DNA of 64,000 bases from Candidatus Multivoradales bacterium (GCA_965223325.1 CBDCWI010000001.1:2080091-2144090), one strand, 5' to 3'. Positions 42,131 to 64,000 are shown, counted from the stretch's first letter. Notes: generated by a model from the sequence alone, not told the origin. Made by a program: numbers and translations.

Positions 42131-42444
42131 CGCGCGGCGATGCCGCGCACGGTAGGGGGTAAGTATTGACGGCAACGCCAGACAAGGCGACGCGCCGAGT
42201 TCCGAAGCACTCCATCGTCCTCTTTCACCGCCTCGATGGTTGTCGCGAGGGCAGTAACCTTGCCTTCGCCACCCCCTGACACCTCGGCACTCCGCCCGAA
42301 AGACGCAGCTCCGCCATCGCACCAGTAGGTGCGTCCCCCTCAACCTCGTCAACCACCTCTTTACCGGCGGGCTGGACCGTCAGGGGCCGTCGCGTGCACC
42401 CGGCCCAGGCACTTCCAAGGCCACAAACGGTGGCGGGCTTGGGA
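42131..42444 (-). mobile_element. Remnant of family A element (terminus, 3' non-coding end, last codons of transposase)
   Basis: Starts cgcgcggcgatgccgcgcacggtagggggtaagtattga and aligns with 45196-45495. Confidence 0.9.
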
Positions 42445-42898
42445 AGTCCCCGGCCTCCCCAGCCTCGTGAGCGTGCGCACGCGTCACGAAGAAGCGGGCG
42501 GGCGCATCCGGGCCGCTAGGCCTCAGCCGCGGCGGTTCCTCTGCGGAGCCTCTACGTCCGATCCCCCCGCAGTCGGGGTCGGGTTACGTGGAGCCCATGC
42601 TCCACATCTTGCCAGCCTCCCATTCAACACACCCCCAGGATTCCGTGGCCGGCACGAGGACGCGCTAGAACTCCCCGGCTCCAGGGTTCCACCTTTCAGA
42701 CCTCCGGTCGGCAAAGGCCGACGAGATGGTCCGCCTTTCCAACCGCCGGAATCTCGAACCCAGGACCCGAAGTGCAATGCCGCCCGGGTTTCCGAGCGAT
42801 CGTCGCCAGAGCCAGCGGTACAATTGTCTGGACGAGAGCAGCGGTGTTTGCTGCATCAGCTCCATTGAATAACACTGTTGTACTGCCAGGAGGGACCC

Positions 42899-43213
42899 GT
42901 GATCGATGCCGAAGCGATCGACTGGCTCCGGCCATGGGAGAAGGTCGGAGATTCGGCGCCCGGCCTAGAACGTCAGTTGATTCGGGAGGTCGCCGAGGGC
43001 CACCCACTCTTCGGCCTCAGCGTCACCGCGTTTGCCCGGCGCAGCGATACGGACGATGTCCTCTTTGGTGTAGGTGTTTCGAAGGAGCGCCTCGCTGCAG
43101 TCCACCTGACATGGGGCGGCCGCCAGGAGCCGCCCCTACCAGGCACCGATCTGTTCGAATCATTCGAGTCTTTCAAGACTCAAGTCATGGAGCCAGATAA
43201 TGTCGGGGCCTAG
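42899..43213 (+). CDS. Integron-cassette hypothetical protein
   Basis: RBS aggagg; 'HPL...ARR.D.DDVLF...AVHLTW'; bounded by GTTGTACTGCCA (42877) and TGGCAGTACAAC (43219). Confidence 0.7.
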   Translation: MIDAEAIDWLRPWEKVGDSAPGLERQLIREVAEGHPLFGLSVTAFARRSDTDDVLFGVGVSKERLAAVHLTWGGRQEPPLPGTDLFESFESFKTQVMEPDNVGA

Positions 43214-43223
43214 GGCGCTGGCA

Positions 43224-43306
43224 GTACAACAACCACGTGCACTGGACAAGAACCCGCGCTCGCTGCGCTCGCCCGGGCTCTTGCCAGTGACGTTCGTCCG
43301 TTAGAC
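43224..43306 (+). other. Integron attC site
   Basis: R'' GTACAAC, arms acgt(G)cactgg/ccagtgacgt with an extrahelical base, central cgctcgctgcgctcg, R' GTTAGAC; 83 bp. Confidence 0.85.
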
Positions 43307-43311
43307 ACCTG

Positions 43312-44034
43312 ATGAACCGCCGCCGAGCAAGACGAGTAGCCGCCTTCGTCGGTGCGCCAATCGTTGGAACCATCGTGCTTGTGTGTATCCAGCTGTTCAC
43401 CTTGGTTTCCAGCGGGGTCGGCGGCCTTCTCGAACCTGAGGTGTGGGCGGGATTCATCTGGATCGCGCCTTATGCTCTGTTCATTGGTGTGGCCGCACAG
43501 ACTCTCATCGGCCTTCCGCTTCTCAGGGCCTTTCGTAGTCGAGGCTGGCTTTCGTCGCCAGCCTTCGCCGCCGGCGGTGCGGCTGTCGGGCTGATCCTGT
43601 TCCTCCTGCTCTATTGGGGCGACCGGCCTTTCCTGCCACGCTTAGCGTTCTGTGTCCTCCCTGCTGTTGCTGCATCGGTGTACTTCGGCCTCGTCGGGGA
43701 CTGGACAGCATGGAGCCGACGTGAACCCGCAGCCGCTTCGCGGCTTCGTGTTCCCGCGGCTCATGCCAGTCCGTTGTGCGGCCCCTACGACACGGCTGAG
43801 GCTCTGGTAGCCTCCGGGGAGGAGGCGACCATGAAGCAACGCGAGATCGAGAAGGTCTTCGAGGTCCTTGGGCTTTCTGGAGACGAGGGTGCCGCCGCGC
43901 AGCTGAAGACGCCGCGTCAACCCCAGCCCAAGCGGCTCGTGTTCATCGCGGCAGAGTCAACGTCACAGGCAACCGAGACCGAGGTACATGCCCAACTGGA
44001 ACGAGATTCTCAACGAGCTGAAGGAGGCGGGTAG
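43312..44034 (+). CDS. Cassette membrane protein (4 TM, to about 43710) whose ORF reads through the next attC into a small ORF
   Basis: ATG 5 bp after R'; hydrophobic to about 43700; no stop codon before the attC. Confidence 0.55.
   Translation: MNRRRARRVAAFVGAPIVGTIVLVCIQLFTLVSSGVGGLLEPEVWAGFIWIAPYALFIGVAAQTLIGLPLLRAFRSRGWLSSPAFAAGGAAVGLILFLLLYWGDRPFLPRLAFCVLPAVAASVYFGLVGDWTAWSRREPAAASRLRVPAAHASPLCGPYDTAEALVASGEEATMKQREIEKVFEVLGLSGDEGAAAQLKTPRQPQPKRLVFIAAESTSQATETEVHAQLERDSQRAEGGG
43700..43779 (+). other. Integron attC site with degenerate R''
   Basis: gcatg(G)agccg/cggctcatgc arms, agccgc-ttc-gcggct centre, R' GTTGTGC at 43773. Confidence 0.7.
43831..44034 (+). CDS. Small protein (67 aa) overlapping the protease gene
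   Basis: Strong RBS ggaggagg before ATG 43831; MKQREIEKVFEVLGLS... Confidence 0.55.
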   Translation: MKQREIEKVFEVLGLSGDEGAAAQLKTPRQPQPKRLVFIAAESTSQATETEVHAQLERDSQRAEGGG

Positions 44035-44895: not shown

Positions 44896-44908
44896 GGGGC
44901 CGCACAAC
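44896..44908 (+). other. Truncated attC (R'' end only)
   Basis: GGGGCCGCACAAC is the exact complement of GTTGTGCGGCCCC (43773-43785); no hairpin arms follow. Confidence 0.7.
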
Positions 44909-45195
44909 ACCTATGAGGTCCCCTGACGTCAAGAGGCAAACGTCTCCTAGCGGACGAGGTCCGTAGCGGTTTTCGGTCAGGTTTCGAATTCTGACTTTGG
45001 TTTCAGAGTGGGTGCGAGGCGAAGCCTCTGCACCAAACACCTATTGGGCCTCTGCCCTCGCTTTCGCGACGACTGCTGGCAGTGCCAGCGGACCAGAAAC
45101 ACATCGGTGCCCTCGTACCGTCCGATTCAAACCGTGCTGGTCACGCCCGGGAGCGCGCCGGAGTTGGTTGCCTGGTTCGGGTGAGGGGCAGAGAT

Positions 45196-46582
45196 CGCGC
45201 GGCGATGCCGCGCACGGTCGGGGGTAAGTTTTGACGGCAACGCTGGACTGGACGAAGCGCCGAGCCTTCGCGCGCTCCATCGCCCTCTTCTCCGACCTCG
45301 AGGGGCGGTGACGAAGGCAGAAACCTCGCCTTCGCCACTCCTGAACGTCGGTACTCCGCCCGACAAACGGAGCTCCGCCAACACACCGATCGGTGCGTCC
45401 CCCTCAACCTCTTCGCCGGTGGCCTGGGCCGTCAGGGACCGTCGCGTGCACCCGGCCCAGGCACTTCCAGGGCCACAAACGGCAGCGGGCTTGGGAAAGT
45501 TCCGGGGGGAAACCGCGCCTCCAGGTCACCACCCCACAGAAGATCGCGCGCCGCACGATGCGCTCGCCTCACCGCATCAAGAACCGAAAGCAGCCGATTG
45601 CGCTCGTACGAGTCCGATGCGATGACCCGAGGCCTCGGCCCCCAATCGAGCTTCCTCGGACGGCGCATCGGACTCACCTGTGTCGTCTTGTAGGCACCGC
45701 GAGGCCTAGTCCCCTCTCGTTTGTGGCGCGCCCGCGTCTTGTCCTCGATCGCAACAATCATCCCGCGGGCCCAGTCGAAGTACTCCTCGTCAGGGAGGTC
45801 CTCGAAGCACGGAAGCTTCGATAAAACGACCGTCTCGCGGCTCGAGAAGTCCTTTTCGCTCAAACGACGACCGGCTTTCGAGAAACGGGCACGACGAAGC
45901 GCTGAACGATCGACCCAGGTGCCCTCGAGCTCGAAGGTCCCTGACCACAACGCCTCCCCTACCGACACGCCTGGCCACTTGCGAGGTGAAGACACCAACC
46001 CCGCCTTGCAACCCTGGGCAAGGATGTAGCGGAAACGACGGCAGAGGTCCTTCTTCGCGTGACCGGGAAACGACGTCTTGTACGGCCCTTCCCATTTCGG
46101 ACCCTTCCACCCGCGCAGGATCCGTAGTTCCACACTCGTCTGGTGCTGAATGCGCCGCATGAAATCGGCCAGCTGCTGGGCATCGCGAGCGCCCAGCAAA
46201 AGGTGAGCATGATTGACCTGGTAGTCCAGGGCGTAGATCCGGATTTCGGTCTTTCGCTGCGCGCGACCGATGATCCCGATCAGCAGTTCGCGTAGATGTG
46301 ACGATGGCGCCAACAGGAAGAACCCGTTGACGATGCGCACCGTCACTTCGACGACTCCCCAACCGCTCGAGTCGGTGGGGACATACCTCAGTTGATGGGC
46401 CATGACTCTTCGCACGGAACCATCGATGCCTTGCAGGGAGCCGAATCTTAGCGGATGACCCTCGCCATCGACCAACTGTCATTTGTGAATCGGGCTACAC
46501 GTCAGGTCGGTGGCGAGTCCCGGCCCTGCGCCACAACTTCGACTCAAAACTTACCCCCGACTGTGCGCGGCATCGCCGCGCG
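45196..46582 (-). mobile_element. Family A HUH/Y1 element, copy A1, 39-bp TIRs
   Basis: TIRs 45196-45234 and 46544-46582 (1 mismatch), each with hairpin GCGCGGC-N3-GCCGCGC. Confidence 0.9.
45432..46403 (-). CDS. HUH/Y1 (IS200-fold, RAYT-like) transposase, family A
   Basis: VNHAHLLL (HUH), FRYILAQGCKAGLV..P..WPG.S (catalytic Tyr helix), FPPGTF tail. Confidence 0.85.
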   Translation of the reverse strand: MAHQLRYVPTDSSGWGVVEVTVRIVNGFFLLAPSSHLRELLIGIIGRAQRKTEIRIYALDYQVNHAHLLLGARDAQQLADFMRRIQHQTSVELRILRGWKGPKWEGPYKTSFPGHAKKDLCRRFRYILAQGCKAGLVSSPRKWPGVSVGEALWSGTFELEGTWVDRSALRRARFSKAGRRLSEKDFSSRETVVLSKLPCFEDLPDEEYFDWARGMIVAIEDKTRARHKREGTRPRGAYKTTQVSPMRRPRKLDWGPRPRVIASDSYERNRLLSVLDAVRRAHRAARDLLWGGDLEARFPPGTFPSPLPFVALEVPGPGARDGP

Positions 46583-47047
46583 CTCCCCTTCACCGAGTGT
46601 GCCCATCTGTTCTGGCCTGGAAACATGGCCCAGACCATCGCCATTGCGGCAACAGATCAGAATGACGCTCATGTCCTAAACACCTGCTTCGCTCCAGCCT
46701 CCAACAACACAATCGACTTTTCAGCCCCGGGCCAGGACATCGCAACCGTAGACAGCGCAAGCGACACAGCGGACGATTTCGACACAACAACCGGCACCTC
46801 TTTTGCGGCTCCGCTCGTTTCGGCGACTGCAGCACTCGCACGAGCGCTCTACCCTTCGATGACCCAAGACCAGTTCTATGATTACCTCAAGGACACTGTG
46901 ATCGACCTTGCGCCCACAGGCAAGGACGGCGCTTTCGGATGGGGTCGCCTACAAGCCGACGATACGCTTGACGCCGTGCCACAACTACTCTTCGAGGACG
47001 GTTTCGAAAGCGGGGATACCACCAGTTGGTCATCAACCGTGCCATAG
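46583..47047 (+). pseudogene. C-terminal fragment of S8 subtilase with DGFESG tail, truncated by A1
   Basis: FWPG...IAIAATDQND, DFSAPG, GTSFAAP; ends LFEDGFESGDTTSWSSTVP*; catalytic Asp and His missing. Confidence 0.85.
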
Positions 47048-48381
47048 CGGGTGCCTTCGGTTCATTACTGCTCCTTCCTGCACTTCTGGTTGGCGTACAG
47101 AACCGGCTGGAGGTCAGGGTCGTCGCGTCTAGCTCCACGCCGCGGCCCGGAGACTCCGCCACTTTGTTCGTGGGTCGACAACAACCGCAAGTTGAAGAAG
47201 GCACCGTCGTTTTTCGAGCACTTAGAAACGGCCCGGCGCCCTTCCCTCAAGGCCTCTACGCGTGGAAGCGTGGGGGACTCACTACGGTACTTGATGAGAA
47301 CACCACCCTTCCAGGTGGCGGAACGGTCAAGCGCGTGGGCTTTGACTTTCTCATCTCGAATGGCACGATCGTCGCAACGGTCGATGATGATGCCGACCTG
47401 CGCCGGCTGGTCACCTGGACCAGCGGCACTATCGAGGTGCTCCTTCGACAAGAGGACGTCTCCCAAGAAACAGGAGAGCCCTTCGGACGTTTCACTACCG
47501 CCGCGGCGAGCCCGCCAATTGTTGCGATCGTCGACGACGCGAGCACAACGCTCTCCCTCCTCGGCCAGGGAAACGTCACTACTGTTGCCGGTCCCACTAC
47601 CCCGGTGCCAGAGAGTTTTTCAGTGGGCTTCGCTGGAATCCTCGAGGCGGCCATGAACGAGGCGCAGCTGGTATTCGCGGCCGCGACTCTAGACGGCCCA
47701 GGCACAGGACCGGACGGCCTCTACCGCTACTCGAGCGGTGCACTGACGCGCATCGTGGACAGGTCCACCGGAGGACCAGTACCCGCCTCCACACTCAGCG
47801 ACTTCTCCAACGTCGTTGTGTACCGGCAAGAGGTCGCTTTCACGGCATCATGGAACACTCCGCTCGGAACCCAGCAGGGCGTCTTCCGGGTCGCAGAATC
47901 CGACGGAGAACCCGTCCTCTGGCTCGCTGCCGAAGATGAAATCGAAGGAGTAGCCGGCAAGGTCACCAGCATTCGAAACGTAGGCTTCTTCGAGGGGAAC
48001 CTGGTCGCCGACGTCCTCACCGACCAAGGCGAAAGGGGGCTCACACTCACCACAGCTCCCGGCGCGTCGTGCCCGCTACTCCTACCGTTCTTCGAAGAGG
48101 GCTTCATTGCTGAAGGCGGACCAGAGGAGCCAAGCTGGACGTCTGACGGAAGCACAATCGCCTTCTGGCTCCGCCGCCTGCTCCCGGATGAAGGAGGACT
48201 AGTTGGCGCCCAAGGTATCTGGACCGCGCAACGCAGCACGCACGAGATACCCGCGTTAAGCCCACTCTCGCTCGGACTTCTCGTCACACTTCTCGCTGCC
48301 AGCGCACTCCGAGCACTGAAAGGTAGCAGACGTGAGTTTCGCCAGCGCAACGGCCGGTACTGCAGACGGCCTGATCGGTGA
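47026..48381 (+). CDS. Secreted beta-rich repeat protein with IPTL-CTERM-like sorting signal
   Basis: C-terminal EIPALSPLSLGLLVTLLAASALRALK plus basic tail; hydrophobic leader. Confidence 0.7.
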   Translation: MVINRAIAGAFGSLLLLPALLVGVQNRLEVRVVASSSTPRPGDSATLFVGRQQPQVEEGTVVFRALRNGPAPFPQGLYAWKRGGLTTVLDENTTLPGGGTVKRVGFDFLISNGTIVATVDDDADLRRLVTWTSGTIEVLLRQEDVSQETGEPFGRFTTAAASPPIVAIVDDASTTLSLLGQGNVTTVAGPTTPVPESFSVGFAGILEAAMNEAQLVFAAATLDGPGTGPDGLYRYSSGALTRIVDRSTGGPVPASTLSDFSNVVVYRQEVAFTASWNTPLGTQQGVFRVAESDGEPVLWLAAEDEIEGVAGKVTSIRNVGFFEGNLVADVLTDQGERGLTLTTAPGASCPLLLPFFEEGFIAEGGPEEPSWTSDGSTIAFWLRRLLPDEGGLVGAQGIWTAQRSTHEIPALSPLSLGLLVTLLAASALRALKGSRREFRQRNGRYCRRPDR

Positions 48382-48494
48382 GAGGTGGTGCTGCGGCGAC
48401 GGCCGAGAACACACAACAAGGTAGCAGAAAGCGATCACGTGTACCGGGTAGTTCGGGCAACGCCCGAGGCTTCGCCTCGGAGACGTTCTCGGAG

Positions 48495-49994
48495 ACGTTC
48501 CAGGCAACTATGTTTCATAGCCATGCGAGGTTCACGCGCATGCCGGAATTCACGACTCGGATCCCTGAGCGAAGTCCGCGGCCATACTGAACATGCGCAA
48601 GCAGATCCGCACCAAACACCTCCTCAACGCGGCTCGACCACACCTCAAACCACCGTCCAAGCCAGTCCAAGCCGCTGCGCGGTTGACTGCGCCATAGCTC
48701 GCGCCGCGATCTCGTGATCGCCGTCCCCAAAAGACGCAACACTGAAGTCCTTCTATCCAGGAGCGCGAGCCGCGTGCGGAACGAACGCGCCACGCGGCGG
48801 GAAGCAACCTCGCGGGAACGCGACGTTCTCTTCACCCGAACGCAACCTACGCGCCGCCCTCCTGTACGCCACAACAAAATGCCAGCGGTTGACGATGAAC
48901 GCGACGCGCTGTTCCCGGGTGTGGGCGTGGCAGGCCGGGGCGGGGCTGCGCTTCGAATGGCGCGGAGCGGCGTGAGGGTCCTGGGCGAGGATCTTCTCGC
49001 CCATGCTCCGCCCGCCTTCGAGATCGAGGCGTTGGCCTGTCTCTTCCTCGATGTCTTCGATCATCGAGACGAGCATCTTGCGGTAGGTTTCGGCGCTCAG
49101 GTCGGCAAAGTGCGGCAGGGGCTCGAGAGTGAGCTCCTCGAGCGTCTCGAACTCGGTGATGTCGATCTTGCGATTCGCCTCACGACGCTCGCTCCGGCTC
49201 AGCTGTTTGGATCGCGGGCCGATCACTCCTCGGCGGACGCGCTCGTGGTACAAGCCGGTGCGATCTAGCCAGACGCCGGAGAGCCTCATCGAACCGTCGG
49301 CAAGAGCGCGAGCACTCGTCACACCAGGCCAGTCAAGCGGCGAATCAATCAGCCCTTCTTTGCAGCCCTGCGCCAAGACGTAGCGAAGGCGCTGGTACGC
49401 CGCTTGCGGCTCGTCGGTGAGTTCGATGCCCTGGTAGCGGCGACACCAGAACCGCTCGCGCCAGCGCTGCAACCGGCCAACCCGTCTCGCGATGTTTCCG
49501 TTGGTGAAACCCATGAAGCGCGAGATGTGCCATTGCGATGCGGCGGACAGCAAGAGATGGCAGTGGTTTGAGCCGAACCAGAAGGCGTGGACGCTCACTC
49601 CGTAGAGCCGCTGCGCACGAGCGAGGACGGCGATGATCTCGTTGTTGACTTCTTTGCTCGGCCGCAGGAGGAAACGCGACTGGAGGCAGCGCGTGGTGAC
49701 TTCGACGACGCGGTTGGGCGTGTAGATCCTGGGTTTGGCGAAACGCATGGGGAGGAAGCTGCCGTTGTTTGGCGAACTGGTTGTCGTACCTCCCGAGAAT
49801 CTGCGCTCTTGTTACGGCCCCCACCTTAGAGTGCCGTTGCTCCAAGCGGCTCGCGGCGCGTCGCGTGGCAGCACTACGCCGGTGGCACGCCGCTGGAGGC
49901 AAGGTGGCTCACTTTCCTGATGGCCGCTGACGCTCGTGAATCTCGGCAGGCGCGTGAACCTCGCATGGCTGTGAAACATGGTTGCCTGGAACGT
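48495..49994 (-). mobile_element. Family B HUH/Y1 element, copy B1, TIRs of about 60 bp
   Basis: acgttccaggcaactatgtttcatagccatgcgaggttcacgcgcatgccgg... matches the reverse complement of about 49934-49994; hairpin CCGAGGC-TTC-GCCTCGG at 48464-48480 lies just outside. Confidence 0.88.
48753..49748 (-). CDS. HUH/Y1 (RAYT-like) transposase, family B
   Basis: EVTTRC.Q.RFLLRP, SNHCHLLL, LRYVLAQGCKEGL...P.DWPGV, FP.GCFPP. Confidence 0.85.
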   Translation of the reverse strand: MRFAKPRIYTPNRVVEVTTRCLQSRFLLRPSKEVNNEIIAVLARAQRLYGVSVHAFWFGSNHCHLLLSAASQWHISRFMGFTNGNIARRVGRLQRWRERFWCRRYQGIELTDEPQAAYQRLRYVLAQGCKEGLIDSPLDWPGVTSARALADGSMRLSGVWLDRTGLYHERVRRGVIGPRSKQLSRSERREANRKIDITEFETLEELTLEPLPHFADLSAETYRKMLVSMIEDIEEETGQRLDLEGGRSMGEKILAQDPHAAPRHSKRSPAPACHAHTREQRVAFIVNRWHFVVAYRRAARRLRSGEENVAFPRGCFPPRGAFVPHAARAPG

Positions 49995-50045
49995 AGCCCG
50001 CCGCCGCCGTAGCCCGCCGCCGCCGCCGCCGGTCCCGAAGGGTCG

Positions 50046-50535
50046 GTGACGGTCCACGACCATCGCGAGCGGCGTTGGCGTCACCTGGACACCTGCCAGT
50101 TCCAGACGATCCTTGTCGCTCGGGTTCCTCGAGTGCGGTGCAAGGAGCACGGAGTGAAGACGATCCATGTGCCCTGGTCCGATCCGGGTTCGGGGTTCAC
50201 GGCTCTGTTCGAAGCGCTGGTGATCGACTGGCTCCAGGCTGCGAACACGTCGGCCGTGTCCAGACTTCTCGGCTTGACGTGGGACGAAGTCGACGGGATC
50301 AAGCAGCGAGCGGTGGCCCGTGGTCTGGCCCGCAGGGAACTCACGGTGCCCGAAGACATCGGTGTCGACGAGACGTCTTTCCAGAAGCGTCACGAGTACG
50401 TGACGGTGGTCGCAGACACGCGGGCGAACGTGATCCACTGGGTGAGCGACGGCCGTGGGAAGGAGTCCCTGTCTTCGCACTTCGAGTGCTTCGAAGTGGC
50501 TGACCTGCAACAGGTTCGCAGCATCACGATGGGGT
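50046..50535 (+). pseudogene. Internal fragment of ISL3 family transposase
   Basis: HD.R.R.WRHLDTCQF.T...ARVPRV.C.EHGV....VPW, FT.LFE, IGVDETSFQKRHEYVT. Confidence 0.9.
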
Positions 50536-50687
50536 TCTTTCATCGATCACGGAGGGAATCGGCTGCCCGAACTACCCGGTACACGCGCGCCACATTGAGC
50601 AACAATCGCCGAGACCGGACTTCGACCGGGTACAGTGAGTACCATCCTCATATAGTGCCTAGTTCTTAGACCACGGGAGGTCGCTTC

Positions 50688-54343: not shown

Positions 54344-54406
54344 ATCAGCGACGGCACGGTAGGCTTTCCCCTTTGGGACGACCCAGAACCGCCGGCTGTG
54401 AGCTAA

Positions 54407-54895: not shown

Positions 54896-55497
54896 CGGTT
54901 TCCTCTGTCAGTGGTGTCAAAGTCCTCTTGCATTCCGTCTCTGAAAGTATCAAAGAGGTCCAACAGGTCGGGATCAAACGACTCGTCGGTCGTGTGCAAA
55001 GCAACGCCCTCGCAGATTCTTCCGCCCGGGAACTCTGCCTTCATTAGAGCTCTTGACTCGTCATCGAGACCTCGATAAAGCGATGCTACGAGTCGTCGAA
55101 CGGCAGCGGCATCCCGCCTGGATCCCTCAAGGCTGTAGGAACGAAGGGCTTGTTCAGGGATAGTCGCGGCCCTCGCAGGGTCGCTCAGCCCCAAAGCCTC
55201 GTAGCGGTTCCTCATATGAGCAGCCAGCCCATTCCGATGAGACTCGTAGTCTGCTTGCCGCGCAGACAAGCGATCCCTTTCGGCCTGGTCGAGATCGAGA
55301 ATCTCGCGCAGTGTCTGAACGTCCGGAGTCTGGAGGAGGTGCTGTGCGCACGTGTAGGCGGGAAGATTGCTTCCTTTGAGGGTGAGGCGCACTTCCTGTT
55401 GGGTAACGCCTTGTGCGCTAGCTAACCCGGTGGTTAGCACGGCCAATGCTATGAAAACGAAGCCGATTCGAAACAGCGCCGATTGTTCGACAATCAT
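54892..55497 (-). CDS. Secreted helical hypothetical protein
   Basis: Signal peptide (..GLASA); 4-bp overlap with the downstream gene. Confidence 0.6.
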   Translation of the reverse strand: MIVEQSALFRIGFVFIALAVLTTGLASAQGVTQQEVRLTLKGSNLPAYTCAQHLLQTPDVQTLREILDLDQAERDRLSARQADYESHRNGLAAHMRNRYEALGLSDPARAATIPEQALRSYSLEGSRRDAAAVRRLVASLYRGLDDESRALMKAEFPGGRICEGVALHTTDESFDPDLLDLFDTFRDGMQEDFDTTDRGNR

Positions 55498-55647
55498 CTG
55501 ATCGCCCCCTTATGGTTGTTCGACATTGGGTTAGCCGACCATATACGGCGGCGAAATCGGCTGTCAAACGCGAATTCAGGAATAGCGTGTACCGAGTGTG
55601 CGGGAATAGCGTGTACCTCCCCGAGGCTTCGCCTCGAGACGTTCCAG

Positions 55648-55693
55648 ATGAAATGAGTCGGTCGGCCTCCCAGGCAGCTGACAAAGTAGTCAG
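55648..55693 (+). mobile_element. Second IS110 left-end fragment
   Basis: Same as 52666-52711 (atgaaatgagtcggtcggcctcccaggcagctgacaaagtagtcag), with the same upstream hairpin context. Confidence 0.8.
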
Positions 55694-55725
55694 TTCGCGC
55701 GGCGATGCCGCGCACGGTAGGGGAT

Positions 55726-57110
55726 CGCGCGGCGATGCCGCGCACGGTCGGGGGTAAGTTTTGACGGCAACGCTGGACTGGACGAAGCGCCGAGCCTTCG
55801 CGCGCTCCATCGCCCTCTTCTCCGACCTCGAAGGGCGGTGACGAAGGCAGAAACCTCGCCGTCGCCACTCCTGAACGTCGGTACTCCGCCCGACAAACGG
55901 AGCTCCGCCAACACACCGATCGGTGCGTCCCCCTCAACCTCTTCGTCGGCGGCCTGGACTCAGGGACCGTCGCGTGCGCCCGGCCCAGCCACTTCCAGGG
56001 CCACAAACGGCAGCGGGCTTGGAAAAGTGCCAGGCGGAAACTTCGCCTCCGGGTCACCACCCCACAGAAGATCCCGCGCCGCGCGGTGCGCTCGCCTCAC
56101 CGCATCAAAAACCGAAAGCAGGCGATTGCGTTCGTACGAATCCGACGCGATCACCCGAGGCCGCGGCCCCCAATCGAGCTTCCGCGGGCGGCGCATCGGA
56201 CTCACCTGCGTCGTCTTGTAGGCACCGCGAGGCCTCGTGCCCTTTCGCTTGTGGCGCACCCGGGTCTCGTCCTCGATCTCTACAATCATGCCGCGGGCCC
56301 AGTCGAAGTACTCCTCGTCCGGGAGGTCCTCGAAGCACGGAAGCTTCGATAAGACGACCGTCTCGCGGCTCGAGAAGTCCTTTTCGCTCAAACGACGCCC
56401 CGCTTTCGAGAAACGAGCACGTCGAAGCGCGGAGCGGTCGACCCACGTGCCCTCGAGCTCGAAGGTCCCTGACCACAGCGCCTCCCCCACCGACACGCCT
56501 GGCCACTTGCGCGGTGAAGACACCAACCCCGCCTTGCAACCCTGGGCAAGGATGTAGCGGAAACGACGGCAGAGGTCCTTCTTCGCGTGACCGGGAAACG
56601 ACGTCTTGTACGGCCCTTCCCATTTCGGACCCTTCCACCCGCGCAGGATCCGTAGTTCCACACTCGTCTGGTGCTGAATGCGCCGCATGAAGTCGGCCAG
56701 CTGTTGGGCGTCGCGAGCGCCCAGCAGAAGGTGAGCATGATTGACCTGGTAGTCCAGGGCGTGAATCCGGATCTCGGTCTTTCGCTGCGCGCGGCCGATG
56801 ATCCCGATCAGCAGGTCGCGTAGGTGTGACGATGGCGCCAACAGGAAGAACCCGTTGACGATTCGAACCGTCACTTCGACAACTCCCCAACCGCTCGAGT
56901 CGGTGGGGACGTATCTCAGTTGATGGGCCATGACTCTTCGCCCGGAGCCATCGATGTCCTGCAGGGAGCCGAATCTTAGCGGATGACCCTCGCCATCGAC
57001 CAACTGTCATTTGTGAATCGGGCTACACGTCCGGTCGGTGGCGAGGCGTCGCACTGCGCCACAACTTCGGCTCAAAACTTACCCCCGACCGGGGGCGGCA
57101 TCGCCGCCCG
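55726..57110 (-). mobile_element. Family A element, copy A3 (extra terminal hairpin unit at 55696-55723)
   Basis: TIRs present; right hairpin is GGGCGGC-ATC-GCCGCCC. Confidence 0.9.
55960..56931 (-). CDS. HUH/Y1 transposase, family A
   Basis: As A1 and A2. Confidence 0.85.
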   Translation of the reverse strand: MAHQLRYVPTDSSGWGVVEVTVRIVNGFFLLAPSSHLRDLLIGIIGRAQRKTEIRIHALDYQVNHAHLLLGARDAQQLADFMRRIQHQTSVELRILRGWKGPKWEGPYKTSFPGHAKKDLCRRFRYILAQGCKAGLVSSPRKWPGVSVGEALWSGTFELEGTWVDRSALRRARFSKAGRRLSEKDFSSRETVVLSKLPCFEDLPDEEYFDWARGMIVEIEDETRVRHKRKGTRPRGAYKTTQVSPMRRPRKLDWGPRPRVIASDSYERNRLLSVFDAVRRAHRAARDLLWGGDPEAKFPPGTFPSPLPFVALEVAGPGARDGP

Positions 57111-57270
57111 CCTCCTTGACGACGATCGTCTCTTGCCAGCCTCGTCGCTCGAGGAACTCGCGCAGCTGGTGCAGCTGCATGGCGATGGTGTGCTGATGCG
57201 GGGTAGAAACCCGCGCATACAGACCGACCCGAGGCGAGGCCTCGGGTCGGCTGGGGGAGGGGTGGCCAAA
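57111..57270 (-). pseudogene. N-terminal fragment of serine recombinase (resolvase), truncated by A3
   Basis: RVGLYARVSTPHQ.TI.MQL.QLREF.ERRGW motif with catalytic Ser. Confidence 0.8.
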
Positions 57271-57377
57271 AACCCCCTCGTCAGACGGCGATTTCAGGCC
57301 AGTGTTTCCGGGGGTCGAGGGAGGTCGGTTTCGGCATGGCCGAAACCTATACCTTTTGGCCATTCGCGGGTCGTAGA

Positions 57378-58022
57378 TCACATGAGTCTACGTAGCCCTA
57401 GAGCAGCAAGGACGAGCACGAGCAGGGACAGTGTCAGTGGCTGGAGGGTTGGGATAGGGGCTGAGGTTGGTGTTGGGCCCGTGATGATGACGTTGTCGAA
57501 GAGGCACTCGCCGGGAGACCCACCCGTCTGGGCTAGCAACACGCGATATGCCTTCTTGCCCAATTGGGGGGGCAGACTGACGCTGATGCGAGCCCAGCCA
57601 TCATTACCGTTGTCCTCGAAAGAAGCCGTCTCTCCATCAGTACATCCCACTTCGTCGTACGTGAAGATCGCGACGGCGCACCGGCCGAACTCTGATAACC
57701 GCCGAGTATCTGCATCGACACGCAGAGGACTCTCATCAGTAGAAGCGCAGGGAGTCCGGCCTGCGATGCGAGCAGATCCGAAACCGCTTCCCTCTCGAGA
57801 CACCCTGAGGGCTCCGCCCGGGTTGCCCGAAGCAGAGAAGCCGATGGAGCCGGTTACGTTCTCAGAGAGAGTCTCTACTTCAAGTTCCCACAGCGCGACA
57901 TCTTGGGGCTCGTCGAACTCGAATCTGACCTCGGCAGCTGCGGCGCTGATGCAGCCGGTCAGCAGGACCACGGCTAGGACGAGGCAGGGGATGTATCTAG
58001 GGAACAGTTGAGGACCACTCAT
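57378..58022 (-). CDS. Secreted protein with IPTL-CTERM sorting signal
   Basis: Signal peptide from ATG 58022; ends APIPTLQPLTLSLLVLVLAALGLRRLM*. Confidence 0.8.
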   Translation of the reverse strand: MSGPQLFPRYIPCLVLAVVLLTGCISAAAAEVRFEFDEPQDVALWELEVETLSENVTGSIGFSASGNPGGALRVSREGSGFGSARIAGRTPCASTDESPLRVDADTRRLSEFGRCAVAIFTYDEVGCTDGETASFEDNGNDGWARISVSLPPQLGKKAYRVLLAQTGGSPGECLFDNVIITGPTPTSAPIPTLQPLTLSLLVLVLAALGLRRLM

Positions 58023-59937
58023 TGGTATCGCCCGTTTCGAAGCCGTCCACCCAGACATAGCCGTCGGCAACATATACCGCTGCCCCAGCGTCGACCAGAC
58101 CGCATTCGGGCTCGGGTTCTGGCGGAGATTCCTGGGCCCAGTTAGGAAGCTTCCGCGACGTGGCACACATGATGATCTCAACCTGGGACGGACTGAGGGA
58201 GCCCTCCGTTGCCAACACCAGAGCTGCCGTTCCGGCCACGAATGGCGCAGCGAAAGAAGTGCCGAACGCTCCCCTTGTGTAGTTCCCGTCGTACAGCTGC
58301 GTGTCCGAGCATGTGGTCTCCCCTCCGGGGAGGGTATTGACCGCGCCGTCGCGACAGTCAGGATCTGTCGTCAGAAGACCTTTCCCCGGGGCGGCGAAGA
58401 GCACCCTAAAGCCGGGCGCTGGTGATGTGTTCCAGTTGCTTCCATTCGAGGCGTCGTCGCGCTAGCGAGCTCCTGTTATGTCGATGGCCCCAACGGCATT
58501 GACGCTCTCCAGGTTCGCAGGAAACGTTGGCTCGGGAAAGTTGTTGTTTCCAGCCGAAGCGAACGCGATGACTCCGGCATCACGGATCTGGTTGTAGGCG
58601 AGTTCGATGGCGTTTCCTGTGAAGAGTTGCCAGCTGTGCACGGTGACCTGTGCTCCGCCCATGCCGCCAGACCAGGTGATCGCGCTCGCTACTTCGTCAG
58701 CATCTTGATTGGCTTGCCAGCCGCACGACACGGTTGTGCCTGGCCCCGGATCCTCCAGCCAGTCGATCCAGTGAGCTCGTGCCGCCACGACCGAACCTTC
58801 AGGAACTACGCCGATACCACCGATCTGTGCGCCGGAATCAGTGTTGTTCATCATCCCAACCATCCCCGCGACGTGGGTTCCGTGCCACTCACAGTTGACG
58901 GGATCATCATCTGGATCGGGAAGCCACTTGTCTGCATCGTGCCGATGGTGGCCTGTCCCTGTGGCGGTGCCGCCTTCGCCCGCGAAGTTCTTTCCGGCCA
59001 GCGCCTGAAGATCTGGATGCTCAAGGTCGATGCCGTTGTCGATGACGGCTACCCTGACGAGAGGGTTGTTCGAGGCATCGCCACCGGCGCAGAGGTCCCA
59101 CGGGCGCGCTCGCCCCCCGCGGCCGGGACGACGCCCCCGGTGGATCTCAACTTCCCTCAGGACGTCAGCGAACTGCCGCTCTTCGCCTTGGTTTCTCTCT
59201 AGCTTCGGTGCGAATCGCGCTCTTCCAGATGGTCCAGCTCCCACTAGACGCGAAGACTCGAGGTACAGAACCGGGGAGTTCTGGTTGACCCAAGTGTCTT
59301 CCAGGAAAAGGAGCATCTGATCACCCTTCTTCGGTGGCGCCTGCCAGTGCTCGTCTACAACGCACAGGCTTCGGCTTCGCATCTTGATGCGCCCGGCCGG
59401 CACGAACACATAAACTGCTTCGCGCGGTGCAAGCTCTCCGTTCCGAACTTTGATGTCCTCGAGCTCAAGTAAGGTCCCAGCTTCTTGAAACAGGAATCCA
59501 CCTTTGCTTCTTGAGACGCGGGCATGGACGACGATTTGTGTCTCCGCGATCACGTCGTCCAAGCGTTCGTGGCTTTCCGGGGGTTTCGTTCGATCAAGGT
59601 GGGTTCTTAAGCTCGGACAGCCACTGTCCGACGAGGTCGCCTGTCTGAAATATCCCTCAACACTGGACTGAGTCGCGTCGCTGGCTCCCACCAACGTAAC
59701 TTCCCCATTGGGCCCCTCGAGGATCCGGTCTTCGGAGAAGAAGATCGGATCGTTGCCGTACACCGCTTCAAAGAAAACGAGATCGGGAAACGGCGACGCT
59801 TCGTCAGTCGCGACGGCCCCGGCGGCGTGCATGACGGCGGCGGTCACGATAACCGCAACCAGATACTTGAACGGTAGATACGACTTCTGGCGGTCGTGGT
59901 CTCTCAAGGGCACTCCTCCTTCATGTTGAGGGAACAA
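57997..59937 (-). pseudogene. S8 subtilase with DGFETG tail, split by one in-frame TAG
   Basis: VAVIDNG, HGTHVAG, SAGN before the TAG at 58462-58464; AAPG, GTSFAAP and VDGFETGDTNEWSSTVP* continue in the same frame. Confidence 0.85.
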
Positions 59938-60142
59938 ACTCTGGGGCCGTGAACGCAGACCCTTAGGGCTGTTGTGGTTCTACCCTGCCGGTATGAGTCA
60001 CTCGATCTGTTGATGGCAAGGGGTCCCGGCTGAAGGAGGGGCCAGTCGGGATGATCCGCGGGATGAATAGCGTGCCACGTGGCAGCCGCTGTGTCCAGAA
60101 GCGGTTAGAGGGCGATCGGCCCCCAACCCATCGGAGACCCGA

Positions 60143-61635
60143 GACGCTCCAGGCACCCATGTTTCATAGCCATGTGAGTTTCACGCGCATGCCGAGATTC
60201 ACGAGTCGGATCCCGGAGCCAAGTCCGCGGCCCCTACTGAACATGCGCAAGCAGATCCGCACCAAACACCTCCTCAACGCGGCGCGACCACGCCTCAAAC
60301 CACCGTCCAAGCCGGTCCAAGCCGCGGCGCGGTTGACTGCGCCATAGCTCGCGCAGCGATCTCGATCGCCGTCCCAAAAGACGCAACACTGAAGTCCTTC
60401 TATCCAGGAGCGCGAGCCGCGTGCGGAACGAACGCACCGCGCGGCGGGAAGCAACCTGGCGGGAACGCGACGTTCTCCTCACCCGAACGCAACCTACGCG
60501 CCGCCCTCCGGTACGCCACAACAAAACGCCAGCGGTTGACGATGAACGCGACGCGTTGTTCCCGGGTGTGGGCGTGGCAGGCCGGGGCGGGGCTGCGCTT
60601 CGAATGGCGCGGAGCGGCGTGAGGGTCCTGGGCGAGGATCTTCTCGCGTCCCATGCTCCGCCCACCTTCGAGATCGAGGCGTTGGCCTGTCTCTTCCTCG
60701 ATGTCTTCGATCATCGAGACGAGCATCTTGCGGTAGGCCTCGGCGCTCAGCTTGGCAAAGTGCGGCAGGGGCTCGAGAGTGAGCTCCTCGACCGTCTTCG
60801 AACTCGGTGATGTCGATCTTGCGATTCGCCTCGCGACGCTCGCTCCGGCTCAGCTGTCTGGATCGCGGGCCGATCACTCCTCGGCGGACGCGCTCTTGGT
60901 ACAAGCCGGTGCGATCTAGCCAGACGCCCGAGAGCTTCCTCGAACCGTCGGCAAGAGCGCGAGCACTCGTCACACCGGGCCAGTCAAGCGGCGAATCAAT
61001 CAGCCCTTCTTTGCAGCCCTGCGCCAAGACGTAGCGCAGGCGCTGGTAGGCGGCCTGCGGCTCGTCGGTGAGTTCGATGCCCTGGTAACGGCGACACGAG
61101 AACCGCTCGCGCCAACGCTGCAACCGGCCCACGCGTCTCGCGATGTTTCCATTGGTGAAACCCATGAAGCGCGAGATGTGCCACTGCGATTCGGCGGACA
61201 GCAAGAGATGGCAGTGGTTTGAGCCGAACCAGAAGGCGTGGACGCTCACTCCGTAGAGCCGCTGCGCACGAGCCAGGACGGCGATGATCTCGTTGTTGAC
61301 TTCTTTGCTCGGCCGCAGGAGGAAACGCGACTGGAGGCAGCGCGTGGTGACTTCGACGACGCGGTTGGGCGTGTAGATCCTGGGCTTGGCGAAACGCATC
61401 GGGAGAAAGCTGCCGTTGTTTGGCGAACTGGTTGTCGTACCTCCCGAGAATCTGCGCTCTTGTTACGGCCCCCGCCTTCGAGGGCCGTTGTTCTAAGCGG
61501 CTCGCGGGGCGTCACGTGGCGTACTAACGCCGCTGGAGGCAAGGTGGCTCACTTTCCTGACGGCCGCTGACGCTCGTGAATCTCGGCAGGCGCGTGAACC
61601 TCGCATGGCTGAGAAACATAGGTGCCTGGAACGTC
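60143..61635 (-). mobile_element. Family B element, copy B2
   Basis: TIRs 60143 to about 60205 and about 61573 to 61635; colinear with B1. Confidence 0.88.
60400..61399 (-). pseudogene. Family B HUH/Y1 transposase, frameshifted
   Basis: Extra base at about 60797 (gtcttcgaac vs gtctcgaac in B1) splits the ORF. Confidence 0.85.
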
Positions 61636-61680
61636 GCCATGCCAGGCGAAGTCTCGGCGACGGCGATACGATGGGACACG

Positions 61681-62481
61681 ATGCTTGTATTGCACTCTGG
61701 GTCGGGCGCCCAAGATGTCGAAGTGGTGGAGGGAGAGGTACTTGAGGCCTCCGACCTTGACGAGATCTTCTTCACAGCAACCCGTCTGCTGACCGCCCGC
61801 GCTGAGCTTGAGGCTGCCGCGCTACTCCTCACGACCGGCTTCGGCGTTCGTGCGGCACAGAACCACTTTGGCGACGAGTTCGAGGTGCTACATGCGACCG
61901 TCTCTCTTGAGCACTACGAACACCTCAGGATCGCGTCGCAGGACGATAGCTACCGGCGCAGCTTCGGTCTGGTAGCTGACGCCGTCAATGAGATCGCACG
62001 CTATGTCCACGTACGCCATGTGGTCGTCGAGCTCGAGCGAGTAGTCCCTCCTCGGGACTGGCACCGAGACTTCGAGAAACTGATGGTACGGCTGACGGCA
62101 AACCAAGCCCTCTTCTCCTTCCAAGACGCTTCGAAGATCCGCTATCAGGGGCTGAACTTCCGGTCGAGAACGGAGATTCGTGTGTTCGACAAGCTCGTCT
62201 CGGCGGGACTCCTTGTGTTCCCGCTCCCAGTTAGCGTCATGGGGGCGCCTCGGACATACAAGGAGCCAGACTTCGTCGTCGTCAAGGACGGCAAGGTTGG
62301 GATCTTGGAGATTCATGGCGACAAGTGGCATCCACCAGAGACGGCTGCGAAGGAACACGAGCGGCGCCGCGAGTTCACCGCCCTGGGGATAGGTGCCTAC
62401 GAGATCTTCGATGCGAAGCGATGCCAGCAAGACCCCGCGGGCGTCGTAGCGGAGTTTCTCAAGGCGATGGAGAGAGCCTAG
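61681..62481 (+). CDS. PD-(D/E)XK nuclease (Vsr/DUF559-like C-terminus), cassette-borne
   Basis: FRS..E.R, EPDFVV, LEIHG..WH....A.E..R; attC directly downstream. Confidence 0.7.
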   Translation: MLVLHSGSGAQDVEVVEGEVLEASDLDEIFFTATRLLTARAELEAAALLLTTGFGVRAAQNHFGDEFEVLHATVSLEHYEHLRIASQDDSYRRSFGLVADAVNEIARYVHVRHVVVELERVVPPRDWHRDFEKLMVRLTANQALFSFQDASKIRYQGLNFRSRTEIRVFDKLVSAGLLVFPLPVSVMGAPRTYKEPDFVVVKDGKVGILEIHGDKWHPPETAAKEHERRREFTALGIGAYEIFDAKRCQQDPAGVVAEFLKAMERA

Positions 62482-62493
62482 CTCGTCATGGCC

Positions 62494-62576
62494 ACACGAC
62501 AACCAGCTGCACTGGATGTGAACCCGCGCTCGCTTCGCTCGCTCGGGCTCGCACCAGTGAGCTTCGTCCGCTAGCG
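62494..62576 (+). other. Integron attC-like site (degenerate core sites)
   Basis: 83 bp, colinear with 43224-43306 with compensatory arm changes; R'' ACACGAC, R' GCTAGCG. Confidence 0.75.
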
Positions 62577-62586
62577 GGACAGGTAC

Positions 62587-62664
62587 ATGACGAGTCATTC
62601 AGCAGCATCTCTCTTCGAGAAGAACATCGAGAGCGCGGAGCACTGCCTCCACGTTTATGACATC
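62587..62664 (+). pseudogene. 5' end of the next cassette ORF, interrupted by A4
   Basis: ATG 10 bp after attC: MTSHSAASLFEKNIESAEHCLHVYDI, then the A terminus. Confidence 0.5.
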
Positions 62665-64000
62665 CGCGCGGCGATGCCGCGCACGGTCGGGGGTAAGTTT
62701 TGACGGCAACGCTGGACTGGACGAAGCGCCGAGCCTTCGCGCGCTCCATCGCCCTCTTCTCCGACCTCGAAGGGCGGTGACGAAGGCAGAAACCTCGCCG
62801 TCGCCACTCCTGAACGTCGGTACTCCGCCCGACAAACGGAGCTCCGCCAACACACCGATCGGTGCGTCCCCCTCAACCTCTTCGTCGGCGGCCTGGACTC
62901 AGGGACCGTCGCGTGCGCCCGGCCCAGCCACTTCCAGGGCCACAAACGGCAGCGGGCTTGGAAAAGTGCCAGGCGGAAACTTCGCCTCCGGGTCACCACC
63001 CCACAGAAGATCCCGCGCCGCGCGGTGCGCTCGCCTCACCGCATCAAAAACCGAAAGCAGGCGATTGCGTTCGTACGAATCCGACGCGATCACCCGAGGC
63101 CGCGGCCCCCAATCGAGCTTCCGCGGGCGGCGCATCGGACTCACCTGCGTCGTCTTGTAGGCACCGCGAGGCCTCGTGCCCTTTCGCTTGTGGCGCACCC
63201 GGGTCTCGTCCTCGATCTCTACAATCATGCCGCGGGCCCAGTCGAAGTACTCCTCGTCCGGGAGGTCCTCGAAGCACGGAAGCTTCGATAAGACGACCGT
63301 CTCGCGGCTCGAGAAGTCCTTTTCGCTCAAACGACGCCCCGCTTTCGAGAAACGAGCACGTCGAAGCGCGGAGCGGTCGACCCACGTGCCCTCGAGCTCG
63401 AAGGTCCCTGACCACAGCGCCTCCCCCACCGACACGCCTGGCCACTTGCGCGGTGAAGACACCAACCCCGCCTTGCAACCCTGGGCAAGGATGTAGCGGA
63501 AACGACGGCAGAGGTCCTTCTTCGCGTGACCGGGAAACGACGTCTTGTACGGCCCTTCCCATTTCGGACCCTTCCACCCGCGCAGGATCCGTAGTTCCAC
63601 ACTCGTCTGGTGCTGAATGCGCCGCATGAAGTCGGCCAGCTGTTGGGCGTCGCGAGCGCCCAGCAGAAGGTGAGCATGATTGACCTGGTAGTCCAGGGCG
63701 TGAATCCGGATCTCGGTCTTTCGCTGCGCGCGGCCGATGATCCCGATCAGCAGGTCGCGTAGGTGTGACGATGGCGCCAACAGGAAGAACCCGTTGACGA
63801 TTCGAACCGTCACTTCGACAACTCCCCAACCGCTCGAGTCGGTGGGGACGTATCTCAGTTGATGGGCCATGACTCTTCGCCCGGAGCCATCGATGTCCTG
63901 CAGGGAGCCGAATCTTAGCGGATGACCCTCGCCATCGACCAACTGTCATTTGTGAATCGGGCTACACGTCCGGTCGGTGGCGAGGCGTCGCACTGCGCCA
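62665..64000 (-). mobile_element. Family A element, copy A4 (second TIR beyond the window)
   Basis: Appears identical to A3 at a constant offset of 6939 bp. Confidence 0.9.
62899..63870 (-). CDS. HUH/Y1 transposase, family A
   Basis: Translation identical to the A3 ORF. Confidence 0.85.
   Translation of the reverse strand: MAHQLRYVPTDSSGWGVVEVTVRIVNGFFLLAPSSHLRDLLIGIIGRAQRKTEIRIHALDYQVNHAHLLLGARDAQQLADFMRRIQHQTSVELRILRGWKGPKWEGPYKTSFPGHAKKDLCRRFRYILAQGCKAGLVSSPRKWPGVSVGEALWSGTFELEGTWVDRSALRRARFSKAGRRLSEKDFSSRETVVLSKLPCFEDLPDEEYFDWARGMIVEIEDETRVRHKRKGTRPRGAYKTTQVSPMRRPRKLDWGPRPRVIASDSYERNRLLSVFDAVRRAHRAARDLLWGGDPEAKFPPGTFPSPLPFVALEVAGPGARDGP

Follow-up and report, generated by a model that had tools for sequence, protein, structure and literature searches.

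We analysed an array of mobile elements at the end of a contig of Candidatus Multivoradales bacterium. The window, that is, the whole stretch of DNA that was analysed, is 64,000 nt long (GCA_965223325.1 CBDCWI010000001.1:2080091-2144090), and the array occupies its positions 42131-64000. Self-comparison and genome-wide BLAST revealed two repeat families there, A and B, which carry genes for one-tyrosine (Y1) HUH transposases. Family A (~1395 bp) is present as four copies and a stump, and family B (~1507 bp, or ~1535 bp when the outer left hairpin is counted) as two copies (Table 1). The A copies of the window are 91-94% identical to each other, except A3 and A4, which are the same, and B1 and B2 are 94.4% identical. 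As an earlier note on this DNA had claimed, all seven elements share one orientation (two-sided chance probability 0.016), with the transposase on the minus strand: each of the six open reading frames (ORFs) scanned reached the Pfam Y1_Tnp cut-off of 23 bits (25.4-34 bits) and all six are on the minus strand, the seventh element, A0, being a gene-less stump. The elements make up 8853 of the 21870 bases (40%) and alternate, also as claimed, with unrelated cargo blocks; against the proposed 1-3 kb, we measured 1026-3023 bp (2738, 1901, 2950, 1379, 3023 and 1026 bp). The window terminates where contig 1 ends. In total, the genome holds at least 20 copies and pieces of A/B, chiefly in two dense, co-oriented clusters; most of the A/B sequence outside the window lies at 4439684-4491093 of contig 2, with fragments at 4533034-4534218 (BLAST), and this second cluster is denser than the window array.

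Both families are bounded by terminal inverted repeats (TIRs), of 39-46 bp in A and 61-63 bp in B by self-comparison. Each end is tipped, at its outermost part, by a hairpin whose 7-bp stem closes a loop of 3 nt: GCGCGGC-GAT-GCCGCGC in A, and CCGAGGC-TTC-GCCTCGG at the left end of most B copies and at the right end of some. Folding was strongest for the A right end (-11.4 kcal/mol, z -3.5), followed by the B left end (z -2.8); the A left-end hairpin was weaker (z -1.05 on the plus and -1.84 on the minus strand). No target duplication was visible at any copy examined. A census of the hairpins in the genome, allowing one mismatch at most, gave 37 for A (24 inside the two clusters) and 13 for B (every one inside them). 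A genome-wide family of repetitive extragenic palindromes (REPs) was rejected, as the hairpins are few and mostly inside the clusters.

The A protein (323 amino acids) and the B protein (331 amino acids) are 33-35% identical. They carry the HUH-type motifs NHAH (A) and NHCH (B) and one tyrosine motif, RYILAQG, in both; H65, H67 (nearly invariant) and Y126 are kept across 19 homologues. A profile of these homologues searched against PDB matched ISDra2 TnpA (2e-5) and the E. coli REP-associated transposase 4er8 (2.9e-4). With an AlphaFold model (pLDDT 84), the best Foldseek match was 4er8 (E 1.3e-6, TM 0.71 on target), followed by ISDra2 and IS608 TnpA. The C-terminal half (~150 amino acids) had no PDB match in the structure search of this model. 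It is modelled confidently as two strands and long helices, contains invariant L197, P198 and G236 and nearly invariant F298 and P299 (residues ~158-300), and is common to more than 1300 clusters of ~310-amino-acid proteins. The whole family comprises 1359 clusters at 50% identity (E <= 1e-30), nearly all of ~310 amino acids, and the closest relative of A outside this genome is 59% identical. The NCBIfam model for REP-associated tyrosine transposases (RAYTs; REP_Tyr_transpos) gave 31.6 and 36.7 bits, far short of its cut-off (80 bits).

We compared A and B with known systems. TIR-associated tyrosine transposases (TIRYTs, or TIRtrons) were described by Di Nocera, De Gregorio and Rocco in 2013, with an acidobacterial group singled out in the TIRtron passages of their paper (PMC3733652). 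These passages describe a RAYT-like Y1-HUH gene longer than RAYTs, bounded by long TIRs rather than by genome-wide REPs; some of the TIRs hold self-complementary tracts, and solo TIRs occur at moderate number (PMC3733652). By anatomy as described there, A and B would be classed as TIRtron/TIRYT-type units. The motif GGGGWSAS, present in some of the published TIRs (PMC3733652), is only approximated here: GGGGTAAG in the A repeat differs from it at the sixth position, and B has no such run. A and B also differ in forming two families in dense co-oriented clusters, at 91-97% identity and under purifying selection. Arrays, orientation and recombination are not treated in the TIRtron passages of PMC3733652.

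The likeness to RAYTs and their REPtrons (TnpA-REP, 4er8) consists of the best structural match and of a GC-rich hairpin on each side of the gene, in inverted orientation. Yet in REPtrons the REPs are dispersed and the gene is single-copy, whereas here the hairpins are mostly in clusters and nine A genes are intact; the class 2 motif of RAYTs is Y---NP, whereas A and B have YILAQG; and the extra C-terminal half of ~150 amino acids is a further difference. With IS200/IS605 elements (IS608, ISDra2), A and B share the Y1-HUH core, the lack of a visible target duplication, a specific target beside one end and orientation-specific insertion. IS200/IS605 elements are defined in PMC6006769 by the absence of terminal inverted repeats, by different subterminal hairpins and a transposase of ~150 amino acids; their copies within a genome are ~99% identical according to Table 1 of that paper, and A/B anatomy matches none of the Y1 subclass signatures tabulated there. 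The units studied here, in contrast, have inverted repeats of 39-63 bp, proteins of 323-331 amino acids, no tnpB and 91-97% identity. Integron arrays resemble the locus in having co-oriented modules bounded by hairpin-forming sites, and three attC-like sites lie in the window, but an integrase is absent from the window and from the contig-2 tail, the attC-like sites are limited to blocks 1 and 6, and each unit here has its own transposase gene. ISCR/IS91 elements encode larger transposases of the two-tyrosine (Y2) type, and their ends, ori and ter, are distinct and lack inverted repeats. A and B share HUH chemistry with them, and DNA upstream of the gene travels together with the element in the shared tracts described below; they differ in giving only Y1_Tnp matches, in having one conserved tyrosine motif and inverted repeats, and in a recombination boundary that lies inside the element. 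The ISCR-like mobilisation brought up in the earlier note is not supported for these Y1, TIR-bounded elements, which are not of the ISCR/IS91-like rolling-circle kind.

We then compared the orientation of the elements with that of replication. The origin was placed on contig 2, where the minimum of the cumulative GC skew coincides with dnaA (position 3505930), from which it follows that contig 2 is continued at its end by contig 1, read backwards from its own end. With the contigs so arranged, both clusters have their copies in one direction. Of the 17 gene pieces in the two clusters, 16 are co-directional with replication (binomial p 0.0003), whereas outside the clusters the wider family is split into 10 co-directional and 10 opposite members (Fisher p 0.004 versus the clusters). 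A test of orientation against replichore, which the note had proposed, thus gave one prevailing direction in the clusters and a mixed one elsewhere; replichore bias as the only cause was rejected on the 10/10 split and on a reversed mini-cluster (see below). The family was found in 25 of 40 relatives. Tight clusters (spacing below 10 kb) occur in three of these, all of other genera, and their gene pieces are co-oriented throughout (3/3 in G012, 3/3 in G008 and 6/6 in G031); the G012 and G008 clusters contain intact copies, and the G031 cluster is mostly fragmentary. Neighbours spaced 15-50 kb apart in the relatives, in contrast, have the same orientation in four cases and the opposite one in five. 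As tight clusters are uniform and more distant neighbours are mixed, co-orientation is a short-range property and not a mere replichore effect. On contig 448 of G008, three co-oriented copies bracket a phosphoenolpyruvate carboxylase gene, whose Pfam match ends at 807/919, where a partial copy starts.

Four A targets are known with their uninterrupted sequence (^ at the junction): GGGGCAGAG^GTCGAG for A1, in an integron cassette; CCGGGG^GTCGAGG for the full copy Ac4461 at ~4.461 Mb of contig 2; GTAGGGG^GTAAG for A3, in the A repeat itself; and CTGGGG^CACACGG for A2, from a read-contig that continues the IS110-like gene. A G run precedes the A left end in all four. Nested insertions are all co-oriented as well: A3 lies 31 nt into a resident A left repeat, another A lies in A at 744, B in A at ~555, and B' in A at 113. 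Stuttered left ends, comprising A positions 1-72 and 4-47, stand ahead of full copies, and positions 3-31 stand ahead of A3. The IS110-like remnant was entered independently by two different A types, 12-14 bp apart. Judging from these junctions, transposition is specific for sequence and orientation, and the A end itself holds a target. Segmental duplication as the only cause of the clusters was rejected: few flanks outside A/B are shared between or within them, and the nested insertions are independent.

The target sequence is retained on the left only at A2, A3, Ac4461 and B', and on the right only at A1 (subtilase), B1 (ISL3) and the contig-1 copy at 1727145 (outer-membrane barrel gene). 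We confirmed the claim that the flanks of A1-A3 do not rejoin into one gene. That the flanks do not rejoin, and that truncated genes abut element ends, would follow from insertion and then deletion by crossover with a co-oriented neighbour. The note had proposed to look elsewhere in the genome, next to A/B ends, for the missing halves of truncated genes; for the block 2 subtilase, the 5' half is absent everywhere in the genome, and there is no other copy.

Stretches outside A/B that are common between or within the clusters are few, and the recent ones are three, all mosaics. In tract 1 (Table 1) the identity begins inside the A2 gene, the remaining A2 sequence being only 66-98% identical to its partner, and stops 28 nt into the resident A left repeat. 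In tract 2, A3 and its contig-2 partner are 89-94% identical on the left; from the middle of the gene onwards, across the right end and into 200 bp of flank, they are near-identical (95-100%, for the most part 100%). In tract 3, which belongs to the second cluster, two B copies are 87-95% identical over the first 250 bp and then 100% identical over 1.7 kb, including 480 bp of flank. The left boundary of all three tracts is thus inside an element, which indicates homologous recombination and not end-to-end movement. We found no cargo block that had moved between two element ends in this genome; the cargo is almost all unique, and paralogues of cargo genes elsewhere have no adjoining A or B ends. 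The A elements themselves are modular or recombinant, since their left 250-300 bp, downstream of the gene, are of two types, 66-85% identical: A0 and A2 versus A1, A3 and A4 (52949-53200 versus 45193-45450). The earlier note had it that the DNA between copies is reshuffled, and block order indeed differs between the two clusters. It ascribed this to neighbouring ends that excise and capture cargo and named homologous recombination between direct repeats as the simpler alternative; with a boundary inside an element in 3/3 recent tracts, it is the alternative that is supported, and HUH-driven cargo capture is not shown.

The A genes are diverged and conserved. All nine full-length copies are open over 969 nt, with pairwise dS of 0.08-0.39 and dN/dS of 0.03-0.14, and A3/A4 is the only identical pair. 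Four of the seven near-full B copies align as one unbroken piece, as read from tblastn alignments. In the G012 and G008 clusters dS is 0.13-0.23 and dN/dS 0.07-0.20. For comparison, same-genome identity is 99.4% for IS200 copies and 36-75% for the RAYT-like subclasses (Table 1 of PMC6006769). The clusters are thus old and kept functional, which fits a lineage in which only working copies leave descendants and which either persists locally or is repeatedly acquired.

It is conceivable that the Y1 genes are instead domesticated paralogues, each kept for a host function, such as the processing of single-stranded DNA at its own hairpins, and that together they form a gene family and not a set of transposons. 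Every intact copy is under purifying selection, here as in G012 and G008, the family is large (1359 clusters) with a conserved C-terminal half of no known fold, and most non-IS200 Y1 subclasses have been argued not to be classical insertion sequences (Quentin et al. 2018, PMC6006769). We nevertheless regard this explanation as very improbable: many copies are truncated, frameshifted, internally deleted or reduced to solo ends, the elements are nested in each other and in other insertion sequences, and an equally low dN/dS would be expected wherever the copies of a transposon lineage descend from functional ones alone.

The divergence could also reflect accretion by gene transfer, whereby diverged A/B alleles arrive with neighbouring DNA from related strains by double crossover into resident copies, the elements serving as portable homology that keeps the array co-linear. 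The range of dS, up to 0.39, together with the low dN/dS and the nine open genes, fits alleles drawn from a population of active elements, and the mosaic elements with their two types of left region, as well as the almost entirely unique cargo, agree with it. So does the pst-pho operon (porin O/P, PstSCAB, PhoU, PhoB, PhoR; window 8588-20079), which is 99.88% identical to the last 11.5 kb of contig 2 (4534597-4546094; 14 differences, six of them single-base indels), with differing arrays beyond. But no donor is visible, no A relative exceeds 65% protein identity outside this genome, and the nested independent insertions show transposition in place, so that we consider accretion rather unlikely.

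On balance, we think that the array is probably a colony of two related TIRtron-kind elements that has persisted locally for a long time, within a variable island of defence genes (DISARM), integron-cassette fragments and other insertion sequences, and that it is reshuffled by homologous recombination between co-oriented copies. New copies land near, and often inside, resident copies and always in the same orientation, A elements 3' of a G run and with no target duplication to be seen. Their orientation may be set at insertion, as in the single-strand 'peel and paste' of IS608 and ISDra2, by the use of one strand at stalled forks; PMC5027513 describes the lagging-strand template as the strand that both elements leave and enter, beside a fixed short sequence, and blocked forks as attracting IS608 insertions. 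By this analogy, A and B might use an IS608/ISDra2-like chemistry. Homologous recombination between the co-oriented copies has moved tracts of element plus cargo between the clusters; between direct repeats it would also keep the shared orientation, and it may have deleted one flank of nearly every insertion. The 'cargo' would be island DNA that happens to lie between copies and not DNA captured by the transposase.

Several observations weigh against the reading of the array as such a recombining colony. On the right, all three shared tracts stop where the left end of the next element begins or very close to it. One reaches 28-31 nt into the repeat, to a point 10 nt 3' of the hairpin, another stops precisely at the end, and the third falls 4 nt short of the B' hairpin. 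An end-specific reaction predicts such right boundaries and plain crossing-over does not require them, which keeps the former in play. In such a reaction, the Y1 protein would cut and rejoin the left ends of co-oriented copies, and circles of an element with its right-hand cargo would re-insert at other left ends. The stuttered left ends (1-72, 4-47 and 3-31) directly ahead of full copies, and a co-orientation that is strict only at short range, speak for this exchange of modules; every left boundary, however, is inside an element and not at an end, no cargo block lies elsewhere between two ends without such a mosaic, the paralogues of cargo genes lack adjoining A/B ends, and stuttered ends are also expected from nested insertion plus recombination between overlapping copies. 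We hence judge the exchange of modules unlikely. Equally doubtful is the broader idea that TIRtron ends are single-strand recombination sites and the clusters an HUH-based, integrase-free counterpart of integron arrays that diversifies islands of Acidobacteriota. If it were true, divergence together with purifying selection would reflect selection for a working module at every unit, and the end-specific reading would amount to a new kind of cassette system.

The remaining points of this sort concern orientation, flanks, age and assembly. A/B pieces outside the clusters are co-directional with replication in two cases and opposite in three, and the co-oriented A mini-cluster of three pieces at 1720749-1728533 of contig 1 points the opposite way; replication-strand bias cannot be the whole story. 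We found no insertion with both flanks intact, so that what is said here on target duplication and on the chemistry of excision is tentative. The A genes are far older and better conserved than typical same-genome copies of insertion sequences, and a simple recent local burst does not explain them. The assembly is uncertain, because both contig junctions fall in large near-identical repeats: one in the pst-pho operon and the other also within such repeats, of 10-50 kb. Either the two clusters are neighbours, with a duplicated operon between them, or a single locus was assembled in two versions from a mixed sample. In a genome of the same genus, the flanking operon is only ~73% identical at the DNA level. 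Under either assembly reading, the two clusters are related arrays that differ in content.

The mini-cluster on contig 1 consists of A positions 4-213, positions 697-908 and one full intact copy, co-oriented and against replication. The full copy, at 1727145, adjoins an outer-membrane beta-barrel gene truncated at its 5' end.

To our knowledge, little beyond their name has been attached to TIRtrons since 2013. At this locus the behaviour of such elements can be seen: they are multi-copy, insert at G runs and into their own ends, act locally and co-oriented, and stay intact over long divergence, unlike ordinary insertion sequences, with their near-identical within-genome copies, and unlike single-copy RAYTs. 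The behaviour recurs, as tight co-oriented clusters exist in three further acidobacterial genera, and in two of these the copies are intact and evolve under purifying selection. New for the TIRtron kind are dense clusters that are co-oriented and long-lived and whose elements target their own ends and G runs. Dense direct repeats provide many crossover points in an island of defence genes and cassettes and may thus plausibly drive its rapid turnover. We regard the finding in its present form as a useful, moderately unusual case and not as a new mechanism. The earlier note, which proposed a possible HUH-driven shuffling platform, is partly supported. The refuting observations that it named, simple insertions in random orientation elsewhere and an invariant block order, had a mixed outcome: orientation elsewhere is mixed, the lone intact copy outside is not a simple insertion, and block order is variable.

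Table 1. Features of the array, in window coordinates.
Feature	Position	Strand	Description
A0, A left-end stump	42131-42454 (324 bp)	-	Left inverted repeat plus ~285 bp, A positions 4-305; without transposase gene
Block 1, attC-like 88-bp repeats	43221-43306, 43706-43781	+	nhmmer E 5.9e-18, 6.6e-11; cassette-array fragment without integrase
Block 1, first 300 bp of 1.44-kb multi-copy integron cassette	44899-45197	+	Cut by A1 insertion
A1, complete A	45193-46590	-	Coding sequence (CDS) 45435-46403, intact 969 nt, 323 amino acids from MAHQLRY; Y1_Tnp; terminal hairpins
Block 2, subtilase C-terminal 140 amino acids (46625-47047) and 451-amino-acid protein	46625-48381	+	Peptidase_S8 profile positions 172-288 only
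B1, complete B including outer left hairpin (48464-48480)	48464-49998 (48492-49998 without hairpin)	-	CDS 48753-49748, 331 amino acids
Block 3, ISL3-family transposase gene fragment	50036-50669	+	Zn_ribbon_ISL3, HTH, DDE profile positions 1-60 of 240
Block 3, WG-repeat protein, 622 amino acids	50688-52556	+	WG_beta_rep E 1.4e-39
Block 3, nested remnant	52638-52948	+	B left hairpin plus 12 nt, then left 280 bp of IS110-like element, cut by A2
A2, complete A	52949-54343	-	CDS 53195-54163; Y1_Tnp
Tract 1	54097-55723		100% identical to contig 2; from inside A2 gene via A2 right end and block 4
Block 4, two small ORFs	54407-54895, 54892-55497	-	Hydrophobic, signal-peptide-like N-termini, judged by eye
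Stacked remnants before A3	55621-55723	+	B left hairpin plus 12 nt, 50 nt of IS110-like end, A left repeat positions 3-31
A3, complete A	55723-57117	-	CDS 55963-56931; mosaic with contig-2 copy
Block 5, subtilase pseudogene, tail IPTL plus membrane helix	57378-59937	-	Three frames, two frameshifts
B2, B with transposase gene frameshifted near codon 201	60141-61638	-	Self-comparison
Block 6, 301-amino-acid ORF of no known family and attC-like site 62495-62573	61576-62573	+	Site E 1.1e-14
A4, A ended at element position 1341 by contig 1 end	62665-64000	-	100% identical to A3 over 1336 bp

A0 shares 80-88% identity with the corresponding left ends of the remaining A copies. The blocks between the elements contain further mobile DNA, and the region as a whole is a nest of at least five kinds of it. 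The 300-bp cassette piece of block 1 is 95-96% identical to three contig-2 integron copies, and the uninterrupted copies continue past GGGGCAGAG with GTCGAG. The 451-amino-acid protein of block 2 ends in an IPAL-type sorting signal and a membrane helix. The ISL3 fragment of block 3, 98% identical to contig-2 copies, is truncated at both ends and begins 38 bp from the B1 right end. The IS110-like remnant further along the same block matched DEDD_Tnp_IS110 with E 1.2e-3, under the cut-off.

In the assembly the IS110-like element is left as left-end fragments only, two in the window (52638-52948 and 55621-55697) and two on contig 2 (4483986-4484271 and 4472293-4472369). The joint is identical in all of them, 12 nt into the B left repeat and immediately past the hairpin, and this common joint suggests that the IS110-like element targeted the B end. 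A read-contig with a loose end at 52945 continues as an intact IS110-like gene; since read-contigs of two runs carry such a gene, whole copies are present in the sample.

The cargo had been listed as integron cassettes, a subtilase with an IPTL signal, a WG-repeat protein, a secreted pair and a nuclease cassette. This list is largely right: we found the first three; the secreted pair has N-termini that resemble signal peptides by eye only, and family searches gave no nuclease family for 61576-62481. The view of the array as one of secreted and defence genes was not borne out, as none of the 10 window cargo ORFs scanned matched a PADLOC model and three of the six blocks contain broken genes. 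An Rfam search of the window gave no match.

In public reads, the stretch is present in four runs of one study, but only in short-read contigs, which are interrupted wherever an A or B copy lies. Neither a cargo circle nor another block order was seen in them, and the lack of joints in such contigs is uninformative. Contigs of three runs agree with 57256-60209, which includes the block 5 pseudogene, with zero differences. The only joints seen in read-contigs were B1/B2 switches, one contig linking 52945 to 60151 and one stretch-boundary artefact. Block depths within one run vary up to ~fourfold, and these depths of read-contigs are not copy numbers.

The array does adjoin DISARM, as had been stated: a complete class 1 operon (DrmD, DrmMI, DrmA, DrmB and DrmC, all strong PADLOC matches) lies at window 26359-39678. 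Two genes precede it, one for an HNH endonuclease (25068-25946, minus strand) and one for a PDC-S01/DUF4143 ATPase (22826-23995). By Pfam, the cargo of the contig-2 cluster includes GmrSD, an SbcCD-like pair, PIN, Fic and a methyltransferase, with a DISARM-like helicase and methylase set ahead of it. The region at ~4491000-4530000 of contig 2 encodes a UvrD-type helicase, a 2229-amino-acid DEAD/MZB helicase, a 1743-amino-acid Eco57I-type methylase (DISARM-like) and an IS256-type transposase. It also contains three paralogous 5.1-kb units, each of an HTH protein, a 620-625-amino-acid protein and a DUF4143 ATPase; one unit of this type lies in the window, at 20086-24089.

To search for attC-like sites, we used an nhmmer profile of 27 repeats that accompany a tyrosine recombinase on contig 2; the sites in the window thus belong to an integron repeat family of this genome. 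Insertion of A/B targeted to attC was rejected: only three attC-like sites lie in the window, all in blocks 1 and 6, and three in the second cluster, and no element interrupts any of them. Phage_integrase had nine matches in the genome, none of them in the window or the contig-2 tail. The contig-2 integron, at 3806500-3836499, begins with the tyrosine recombinase (3807612), followed by the 27 co-oriented 88-bp attC-like repeats at a spacing of 450-900 bp. A second set, of 14 attC-like repeats without a recombinase match alongside, lies at 4160148-4170443 of contig 2, and the 1.44-kb cassette has at least five copies across these integron arrays.

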